DNA of 4,444 nucleotides, from NCBI RefSeq assembly GCF_003334385.1, contig NZ_QOWN01000085.1; one strand, written 5' to 3'. Position numbers and translations under genes: made by a program. Source of the stretch: Escherichia coli (lineage in GTDB: Bacteria; Pseudomonadota; Gammaproteobacteria; Enterobacterales; Enterobacteriaceae). Positions 1,361 through 4,444 of the stretch are shown one piece after another. Within the stretch, counting starts at the first letter, position 1. The number at the start of each line of letters is the position of its first letter. The notes below the pieces were generated by a model. It was not told the origin of the DNA. It ran no database searches and saw only the letters and a program-made list of their open reading frames with translations.

Positions 1361-1388
1361 TTGCGGTAAAGCGAGAGTTAAGTAGAAT
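1361..1388 (+). promoter_or_regulatory. candidate sigma70 promoter for the hok transcript (-35 TTGCGG 1361-1366, 16-bp spacer, -10 TAGAAT 1383-1388)
   Basis: The hexamers were read by eye. They are positioned a few nt upstream of the conserved hok-mRNA 5' element that begins near 1391. Confidence 0.35.
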
Positions 1389-1390
1389 TG

Positions 1391-1442
1391 CTGCGGGTGC
1401 TTGAGGCTGTCTGCCTCGGGCATGCCACCGTAAGGCAGACAG
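1391..1442 (+). promoter_or_regulatory. hok mRNA 5' leader elements: a tac-like 5' segment (1391-1406) and a 9-bp stem (1407-1415 / 1434-1442) with an 18-nt loop
   Basis: CTGTCTGCC at 1407-1415 is perfectly complementary to GGCAGACAG at 1434-1442. Segment 1392-1406 is complementary to 1769-1784 near the 3' end, pairing 15 bp with a single bulge. This matches the architecture of plasmid R1 hok mRNA (GCTTGAGGCTTTCTGCC...GGCAGAAAG) as I recall it. Confidence 0.5.
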
Positions 1443-1449
1443 AGAAAAG

Positions 1450-1516
1450 CCCCAGTTAACATTATGCGTCTTGCAGGACGCTTAACATTAATCTGAGGCC
1501 AATTTCATGCTAGTCA
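1450..1516 (-). ncRNA. sok: putative Sok-like antisense RNA (type I antitoxin) covering the upstream start codon and SD of the hok leader
   Basis: On the minus strand there is a candidate promoter: -35 TTGCCT (plus coordinates 1550-1545), 17-bp spacer, -10 TAACCT (1527-1522), predicting a start near 1514-1516. The transcript would be antisense to the ATG at 1507 and its SD, and a hairpin GCGTC-N6-GACGC lies at 1466-1481. The ends are not determinable from sequence alone. Confidence 0.35.
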
Positions 1517-1563
1517 CATGTAGGTTAGCCTCTTACACGCCGAAAGGCAAGGAGAAGCAGGCT
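1507..1563 (+). other. Mok-like upstream reading frame: ATG 1507 with SD GAGG 1495-1498, running in frame into hok (the full frame 1507..1719 would give a 70-aa N-terminally extended Hok)
   Basis: The ATG at 1507 is 57 nt (19 codons) upstream of the hok ATG and in the same frame. The other two frames across the hok start have no usable start codon (one has a stop at 1521-1523 and no ATG/GTG/TTG downstream of it, the other a TGA at 1565-1567). Confidence 0.4.
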
Positions 1564-1719
1564 ATGAAGCAGCAAAAGGCGATGTTAGTCGCCCTGATCG
1601 TCATCTGTATTACCGTCATTGTGACGGCACTGGTAACGAGGAAAGACCTCTGCGAGGTACGAATCCGAACCGGCCAGACGGAGGTCACTGTCTTCACAGC
1701 TTACGAACCTGAGGAGTAA
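1564..1719 (+). CDS. hokD: Hok/Gef-family type I toxin, 51 aa (MKQQKAMLVALIVICITVIVTALVTRKDLCEVRIRTGQTEVTVFTAYEPEE), closest to HokD/RelF
   Basis: The peptide has the Hok-family hallmark of an N-terminal transmembrane helix followed by the conserved TRKDLCEVRIRTGQTEV...FTAYEPEE periplasmic tail. It is near-identical to E. coli HokD as I recall it, though the specific paralog assignment is from memory. The SD GGAG (1551-1554) is 9 nt upstream of the ATG. Confidence 0.9.
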   Translation: MKQQKAMLVALIVICITVIVTALVTRKDLCEVRIRTGQTEVTVFTAYEPEE

Positions 1720-1787
1720 GAGACCTGGCGAGGGAGAAATCCCTCGCCACCTCTGATGAGTCAGGCATCCTCAACGCACCCGCACTT

Positions 1788-1814
1788 AACCCGCTTCGGC
1801 GGGTTTTGTTTTTT
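1788..1814 (+). terminator. rho-independent terminator of the hok transcript
   Basis: A 7-bp stem AACCCGC/GCGGGTT with loop TTCG (1788-1805) is followed by TTGTTTTTT (1806-1814). Confidence 0.7.
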
Positions 1815-4270: not shown

Positions 4271-4282
4271 ATCGCGTATGTT
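4254..4282 (+). promoter_or_regulatory. candidate late promoter (pR'-like): -35 TTGCAA 4254-4259, 17-bp spacer, -10 TATGTT 4277-4282
   Basis: The hexamers were read by eye at the 3' end of the Q-like gene. A transcript from here would meet the terminator at 4332-4359 after about 50-70 nt, resembling the short terminated late leader RNAs on which Q proteins act. Confidence 0.25.
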
Positions 4283-4331
4283 TCGTATAAATCTGATATT
4301 TTGCCGATTTTGTACGTGATGGCAAAGTAAG

Positions 4332-4359
4332 AAAAAACCACCGCCAGGTGGTTTTTTTT
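4332..4359 (+). terminator. intrinsic terminator (tR'-like), possibly bidirectional
   Basis: An A6 run precedes the stem CCACC/GGTGG with loop GCCA (4338-4351), followed by T8 (4352-4359). The flanking A and T runs could extend the stem and would allow termination in both orientations. Confidence 0.75.
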
Positions 4360-4444
4360 ATGTCCGAAAATCGCGTCAGTACAGTAAACGCGCTGGTGGC
4401 GGTGAATACCTGTCTTTCAGCTTGCTGGCTTTTTCGACAAGAGT
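4360..4444 (+). CDS. 5' end of an ORF beginning immediately after the terminator (MSENRVSTVNALVAVNTCLSACWLFRQE..., partial, first late-region gene?)
   Basis: The ATG at 4360 is open to the window end (28 codons). There is no obvious SD and the start abuts the terminator T-tract, so the call is weak. The hydrophobic stretch could fit a holin-type late gene, but that is speculative. Confidence 0.2.
   Translation, partial: MSENRVSTVNALVAVNTCLSACWLFRQE

Follow-up and report, generated by a model that had tools for sequence, protein, structure and literature searches.

In the hok/mok/sok (parB) system of plasmid R1, translation of the toxin gene hok depends on translation of the leader reading frame mok, the antisense RNA Sok represses the toxin by way of mok, and the toxin kills through damage to the membrane (PMC4147584, PMC1635323; PMC2891591 is a further source on the mechanism). 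Genetic work on R1 established that translation of mok is required (PMC4147584). The overlap of mokC with hokC is complete, and mokC is what allows hokC to be expressed (PMC8825762, citing Pedersen and Gerdes 1999). The mok and hok frames coincide in several curated records. In phage 933W (GenBank AF125520), mokW (58460..58672, 70 aa) and hokW (58460..58615, 51 aa) have a common stop and starts 57 nt apart, and the record describes MokW as 'similar to Gef+leader protein of Escherichia coli'. Likewise, mokC (16751..16960) and hokC, also called gef (16751..16903), of E. coli K-12 have a common stop and a 57-nt offset, and the 69 residues of MokC are 19 plus the 50 of HokC. The gef leader reading frame is said to have been described as 'orf69' in 1991. 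In-frame mok/hok is already known, having been annotated since 1999 as mokW/hokW of 933W and as mokC/hokC of K-12; it has stood in these curated records for decades and is present in most E. coli genomes. Our literature search found no paper discussing in-frame versus out-of-frame mok, and none on the toxicity or detectability of an extended product of the MokC or MokW type or of the type described here; a recent preprint on Hok diversity leaves Mok aside as hard to predict.

Here we analyse a hok locus in a 4,444-nt stretch of E. coli DNA from contig NZ_QOWN01000085.1 (the window, whose positions are used throughout). With high probability, it represents an intact type I toxin–antitoxin locus of the hok/mok/sok family, carried by a prophage, assignable to the HokD/HokW type and standard in layout, in which the leader frame is a drifting by-product. 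An earlier note on this DNA had treated the in-frame leader as unusual, but mokW/hokW, mokC/hokC, mokA/hokA and the mok/hok pair of Rac-SA53 were all already annotated in frame. Comparison with K-12 and 933W shows that in-frame leaders are ordinary in hok loci, the very outcome that the note had said would refute its reading.

The hok/mok/sok locus of a lambdoid prophage

The locus belongs to the early-right region of a lambdoid prophage. In the RefSeq annotation of the identical region of STEC17-183, it follows genes for ead/Ea22-like and DUF551 proteins and precedes those for DUF968, RusA and DUF1133 proteins. The 501-bp hok locus recurs at 100% identity in an independent complete E. coli genome, and similar DNA is present in 4732 of 5426 complete E. 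coli genomes, at a median of 2 and a maximum of 11 places per genome.

The toxin gene hok occupies positions 1564..1719 of the plus strand and is preceded by a Shine-Dalgarno sequence, GGAG (1551-1554), that ends 9 nt before its ATG. Its 51-aa product is a small hydrophobic toxin of the Hok/Gef family, whose members have about 50 aa, and shares 94% identity with K-12 HokD and 84% with HokC; RefSeq names the identical gene hokD. Upstream, the program-made list of reading frames contains a mok-type leader frame of 70 codons (1507..1719, plus strand) at a position homologous to mokW, mokC and the mok of Rac-SA53, with its start where R1-type mok also begins. It has its own Shine-Dalgarno sequence, GAGG (1495..1498, plus strand), 8 nt before the ATG at 1507, and thus combines the features of mok: a separate ribosome-binding site, a start upstream of hok and an overlap with hok. 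As the earlier note had reported, the two starts are in frame; they lie 57 nt apart (1564 minus 1507), and TAA 1717-1719 is the stop for both. The R1-type layout, a 58-nt offset with a +1-frame mok that ends inside hok, is absent here, replaced by the 57-nt offset and the common stop; this is a difference of sub-type and not a feature that defines the family. An upstream start has a one in three chance of being in frame, and the frame relation therefore carries no statistical weight of its own.

A search of ATG, GTG and TTG codons across 1470-1563 found no second usable start, in agreement with the note's statement that the other two frames offer none across the junction: only TTG 1471, whose frame stops at 1483, and ATG 1518, directly followed by TAG, are present, and both stop early. 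The latter forms a minimal start–stop reading frame (ATG TAG, 1518-1523) in another frame, 11 nt into mok; it seems to arise incidentally from the CATG...CATG complementarity by which the mok ATG is paired in a hairpin.

Ribosomes that start at 1507, a start whose use we predict from sequence, must yield a 70-aa, N-terminally extended Hok. This product consists of MLVTCRLASYTPKGKEKQA followed by the 51-aa Hok (leader peptide sequence, MLVTCRLASYTPK); the extension of 19 residues is hydrophilic and mostly basic, and the Hok domain is whole. Pfam HOK_GEF (PF01848) matches residues 25-66 of the 70-aa product (E 3.5e-22), PHROG 251, 'MokW-like host killing', matches the same product (E 1.5e-31), and the NCBIfam Hok subfamily model gives a match of 46.8 bits, below its curated cut-off of 73. 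In public protein databases the exact 70-aa product is called on 270 contigs. Because mok is in frame with hok, annotation pipelines assign the name 'Hok' now to the 51-aa and now to the 70-aa product: PGAP gives a 51-aa 'HokD' for the locus, where other pipelines give 70 aa under the names 'Hok family toxin' or 'protein hokD', and the 69-aa MokC carries the NCBI name 'toxin'.

At the RNA level, the Rfam sok family (RF01794) matches 1395-1569 of the plus strand over its full length (model positions 1-157; 117.6 bits against a gathering threshold of 59, E 2.8e-27), which identifies the structured mRNA leader and Sok target typical of the hok/sok family. A full-length hok-family mRNA of about 419 nt (1395..1813, plus strand), with ends placed by homology, would contain the leader, mok, hok, a 3′ fold-back and a terminator. 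We read a putative promoter for it from the sequence (1361..1388, plus strand), with a -35 element TTGCGG (1361-1366), a 16-nt spacer and a -10 element TAGAAT (1383-1388); the conserved 5′ end GGGTGCTTGAGG, at which the Rfam match begins, follows 7 nt downstream. The predicted minimum free energy (MFE) fold of 1395-1813 has -176.7 kcal/mol (z -7.3 against shuffled sequences) and contains the long-range pairing of 5′ and 3′ ends seen as tac–fbi in R1, where it holds the complete transcript inactive: the 5′ element GGGTGCTTGAGG (1395..1406, plus strand), at the tac position, pairs with the 3′ fold-back element CCTCAACGCACCC (1769..1781, plus strand), at the fbi position. GGGTGCTTGAGG is kept in K-12 hokC, hokB and hokE and in R1-type hok, and CCTCAACGCACCC in 933W and both Rac loci. 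When the 3′ end is removed, folding predicts that the 5′ element re-pairs locally with AAGCCCC and that the mok start lies in a hairpin of its own. The hok Shine-Dalgarno sequence is not clearly sequestered in the MFE fold of either the full-length or the 3′-truncated RNA, so that a step in which it is 'unmasked' rests on the R1 literature. The mRNA would end at an intrinsic terminator (1788..1813, plus strand), a terminator-like hairpin at 1788-1805, AACCCGCTTCGGCGGGTT, followed by the T run TTGTTTTTTC.

On the opposite strand we predict a Sok antisense RNA of 71 nt (1445..1515, minus strand), transferred from sokW of 933W through an alignment that is gap-free across the Sok stretch. It would have a 5′ tail, a long hairpin and a U-rich tail; the predicted fold (-29.2 kcal/mol, z -4.9) leaves 9 nt of the 5′ tail free and resembles SokC. 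The tail is complementary to mok codons 1-3, the ATG included. A putative sok promoter (1522..1550, minus strand), placed from the sequence and the 5′ ends of sokW and sokC, comprises a -35 element TTGCCT (complement of 1545-1550), a 17-nt spacer and a -10 element TAACCT (complement of 1522-1527); it lies inside the codons that belong to mok alone and would set the start at 1515, 6 nt after the -10 element. A consensus promoter scan of 1300-1900 called no promoter; the putative hok and sok promoters both match the consensus weakly and are placed by homology. Within the Sok stretch, an 18-nt segment at 1464-1481, ATGCGTCTTGCAGGACGC, is itself a small hairpin and lengthens the predicted Sok hairpin; it is also found in 933W and the Rac loci and is absent from K-12 hokC, hokB and hokE.

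Several further features accompany the locus. Just upstream of the putative hok promoter lies a perfect 22-bp palindrome, CGATATGGGAATTCCCATATCG (1327-1348), a possible operator or a site at which transcription of the genes upstream would stop. Two tiny hydrophobic reading frames precede the locus directly, MIWPEAFAITGVAMAIAFLVYVICRCG at 1095-1178 and VSDDISLAMEGALAVIAVVGVYCLVVFLMDRLGN at 1214-1318, the second of which is a hypothetical protein in RefSeq. Rfam isrK matches below the gathering threshold of 50 occur at 1728-1809 (27.8 bits), overlapping the 3′ end and terminator of the hok mRNA, and at 4280-4358 (19.4 bits), overlapping a terminator near 4326-4361; both probably reflect only the similarity of a hairpin followed by a U tract.

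Leader spacing and frame across hok loci

For comparison with R1 we fetched the R1-type locus from IncF plasmids with a 52-aa Hok sequence that we take to be that of R1 and that matched at 100%. One intact R1-type leader (L008) served as reference; another plasmid locus (L007) was set aside, as IS150 cuts the upstream part of its leader. R1-type loci separate the mok ATG from the downstream hok ATG by 58 nt; their mok, again 70 aa long, is read in a different frame from hok and terminates 4 nt short of the hok stop. Two comparisons drawn in the earlier note were therefore correct: mok and hok of R1 occupy different frames, and the locus in the window is 1 nt shorter between the leader ATG and the CTCTTAC motif (23 nt, against 24 nt in the R1 type). 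From CTCTTAC to the hok ATG the distance is 27 nt in both.

We then compared leader frames in a survey of 80 loci on phage contigs, found by Hok-protein search, 35 loci of species-representative genomes, located with a four-protein Hok alignment, and the reference loci. All three leader frames are present, among loci with near-identical Hok. With few exceptions, HokD-like loci have an offset of 57 nt, as do the hokC loci of Escherichia; R1-like loci have 58 nt, a value shared by three of the HokD-like loci (L092-L094), and 56 nt is found in hokC-like loci of Pseudocitrobacter and in L095. K-12 mokB/hokB is also out of frame, with a 58-nt offset, and R1-like Hok proteins occur with in-frame leaders in L106, L109 and L112, the last with a TTG start and a 60-nt offset. 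In the 56-nt loci L095, L100-L102 and L124, mok has 19 codons and overlaps the hok start as ATGA. One in-frame leader, from the second sample described below, stops early: in L133 (IMG/VR contig 2574180227_000002), otherwise a typical HokD-type locus, a stop two codons before the hok ATG leaves a mok of 17 aa. In every locus with an assignable leader start, GAGG stands 6-10 nt before that start, the starts in this count having been assigned by the same search rule.

Some of the loci carry unexpected host labels. Loci of the E. coli or IncF-plasmid type (L090, L096, L103 and L104) lie on contigs assigned to Collinsella, Acinetobacter idrijaensis, Oscillibacter and Streptomyces morookaense, and a 93% identical hok locus (H56) is recorded in 'Actinobacillus phage vB_Apl-pPE4'; these are probably due to contamination or wrong host assignment.

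A second sample was drawn independently of both frame and protein, by searching viral contigs for the pattern GCCTCTTAC N10-16 CAAGGAGAAG. The 120 loci fall into 93 with an offset of 57 nt, 14 with 58 nt, 12 with 56 nt and one whose leader start could not be assigned. Counted as unique leader haplotypes, 21 of 28 are in frame, 6 are in +1 and 1 is in +2. The in-frame leader is thus ordinary and the commonest layout among prophage hok loci, and the out-of-frame mok of R1 is not a general rule for the hok family. We tentatively attribute the in-frame majority to shared descent.

The same counts bear on an artefact that the earlier note had itself raised, in which a 1-nt sequencing or assembly error would have collapsed an R1-like, out-of-frame mok into the in-frame state. 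Its sole point is that the difference from R1 amounts to a single base. Against it stand the 100% identical 501-bp copy in an independent complete genome, the 270 contigs with the exact 70-aa product, the 57-nt offset of 93 of the 120 loci and the curated records of 933W, K-12 hokC and Rac-SA53, and we regard the chance of such an error as close to nil.

Indels reach the same spacing by different routes. Written as the distances on the two sides of CTCTTAC, 57 nt is made up as 23+27, 22+28 or 24+26, and 56 or 58 nt as 21+28, 23+28 or 24+27. We considered the three 57-nt partitions as a sign of selection on the frame and rejected them as such: the indels fall in the putative -35 and -10 elements of the sok promoter, and the out-of-frame partitions are equally diverse.

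Constraint on the leader and its coupling to hok

The 57-nt interval carries several elements besides its codons: the mok start hairpin (1495-1532), the hok Shine-Dalgarno sequence and, on the opposite strand, the putative sok promoter, and natural indels are located within or beside the hexamers of this promoter. A tolerance of the sok promoter for spacers of 17-18 nt would explain why offsets of 56, 57 and 58 nt all occur and why the frame drifts. Protein-level constraint was assessed from the variability of codon positions in 69 unique, gap-free in-frame haplotypes, comparing leader codons 2-19 with hok codons. Variable sites at codon positions 1/2/3 number 11/9/19 in hok, which is the usual coding pattern, and 8/7/1 in the leader; as third positions are the least variable in the leader, we conclude that it is unconstrained as a protein. 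Differences from the consensus codon are synonymous in 27 cases and non-synonymous in 177 in the leader, compared with 53 and 108 in hok.

These data weigh on the possibility, also raised in the earlier note, that two toxin isoforms arise from one mRNA. Selection might maintain the in-frame layout because the 70-aa and 51-aa products are both functional and differ in toxicity, membrane targeting or stability, or because in this clade the actual toxin is the 70-aa form. Such selection could account for the predominance of in-frame leaders (93 of 120 loci and 21 of 28 unique leader haplotypes) and for three indel partitions that all restore 57 nt, and it suits a hydrophilic, basic extension of 19 residues in front of an intact Hok domain and the practice of several pipelines of calling the 70-aa form the Hok toxin. 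However, near-identical Hok proteins have leaders in all three frames, one in-frame leader (L133) is stopped before the hok ATG, and the 8/7/1 distribution is the reverse of a coding signature; moreover, indels in the putative -35 and -10 elements that keep a 17-18-nt spacer would conserve length without selection on a protein. Given Hok proteins combined with every frame, a leader devoid of coding signature and a variant stopped before the hok start, we judge selected isoforms improbable. We give equally little credence to the more specific proposal that the 70-aa Mok–Hok is a distinct isoform, whether as a toxin with slower action or altered targeting or as a decoy, itself non-toxic, that would titrate Hok. 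If a functional isoform did exist, the predominance of in-frame leaders in prophage hokD, hokW and hokC loci would reflect selection and not descent.

A different reading dispenses with the leader start altogether: ATG 1507 would be unused, Hok would be translated directly from its own strong GGAG, and the upstream reading frame would be fortuitous in a structured leader. The hok Shine-Dalgarno sequence is indeed unpaired in the predicted folds, and the leader has no coding signature. Yet GAGG followed 6-10 nt later by a start is found in almost every intact locus of the hokB, hokC, hokD and R1 clades, whatever the frame, a regularity expected if initiation at the leader start matters. Annotated Sok RNAs cover exactly the leader start and leave the hok start uncovered, and the R1 genetics demand translation of mok (PMC4147584). 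We therefore consider an unused ATG 1507 very unlikely, less probable still than selected isoforms.

On the favoured reading, a standard hok/mok/sok locus with a drifting leader frame, control would proceed through steps that we draw from work on R1 and gef and from the predictions made here. The full-length mRNA would be held closed by pairing of its 5′ and 3′ ends, and trimming of the 3′ end would let it refold. Sok would cover the mok Shine-Dalgarno sequence and start codon and thereby block initiation of mok; once Sok is gone, ribosomes translating mok would cross the hok ribosome-binding region and bring about initiation at hok. In this scheme mok would act by being translated, with the encoded peptide immaterial, and one-base indels in the 57-nt interval would be tolerated; frame 0, found here, would simply be the commonest state in the clade, and Mok would be Hok with 19 extra N-terminal residues, as are MokW and MokC.

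The position of the R1 mok stop speaks directly to the different coupling logic that the earlier note had seen in the in-frame layout. With the R1 mok stop just 4 nt ahead of that of hok, coupling in R1 cannot be termination–reinitiation at the hok start; because mok there reads nearly to the end of hok, coupling by ribosome transit fits in-frame and +1 layouts equally well. One and the same coupling could thus serve both, and the in-frame state needs no new logic. Only the 56-nt variants offer a classic site, and their ATGA layout would suit coupling by termination–reinitiation. The mok frame appears to drift freely among 0, +1 and +2 relative to hok, and such drift fits the view that mok acts through its translation and not through its peptide.

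One part of the leader is strikingly variable. Positions 1510-1521 (mok codons 2-5) are hypervariable even though the loci compared, which include L009-L088 and L124-L243, are about 90-100% identical elsewhere; their mok starts read MLVTC, MNGKS, MSHKC, MLYTR, MTCTC, MHDNI and others. In the mok hairpin the segment occupies the loop and 3′ arm, and in the predicted Sok the 5′ tail and the beginning of the RNA. A role in determining Sok/hok pairing specificity among the 2-11 copies per genome is conceivable.

Comparison with described hok loci

The hok/mok/sok locus of 933W is about 90% identical to the window at the nucleotide level over 94% of the locus, with no gaps across sok, mok and hok, and shares the layout of in-frame mok and hok with a 57-nt offset. 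Its sokW (58664..58734, 71 nt) overlaps the first 9 nt of mokW. Both loci are prophage-borne and have the same 5′ and 3′ pairing elements. They differ in position, the 933W locus lying near the right end of the phage genome and that of the window in the nin region, in a small number of substitutions, most of them in mok codons 2-5 and at the C terminus of Hok, and in the 3′ terminator.

K-12 hokC resembles the window in its common stop and 57-nt offset, and sokC overlaps the first 9 nt of mokC just as the predicted Sok overlaps mok here. By contrast, its interval is partitioned as 22+28 where that of the window is 23+27, its sokC lacks the 18-nt hairpin extension found at 1464-1481, and the locus is chromosomal and flanked by IS186, unlike the prophage-borne locus described here. 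K-12 mokA and hokA also have a common stop, with mokA cut by IS150. The closest Hok protein is that of hokD (relF) in the K-12 Qin prophage, at 94% identity, and the 3′ region is the same as in the window. Upstream of the hok ribosome-binding site, however, the K-12 hokD sequence is unrelated and abuts relE, and neither mok nor sok is annotated; the locus in the window, unlike that of K-12 hokD, is complete.

R1 hok/mok/sok (parB) has in common with the window a structured mRNA, a leader start of the GAGG–ATG type, the GCCTCTTAC...CAAGGAGAAG block, a mok of 70 codons and, as predicted for the window, an antisense RNA over the mok start and pairing between the 5′ and 3′ ends. It differs in its 58-nt offset and +1 mok, in a Hok that is about 37% identical, and in being plasmid-borne.

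The two Rac variants, KU052037 and MN652886, are about 92% identical to the window. Rac-SA53 has an in-frame mok and hok of 70 and 51 aa in a layout identical to that of the window. In Rac 442/2, one T that is extra relative to Rac-SA53, 933W and the window, AAAGG(T)CAAGG, gives a 58-nt offset and an annotated out-of-frame mok of 68 aa. A single T between Rac 442/2 and Rac-SA53 thus suffices to flip the mok frame between close relatives.
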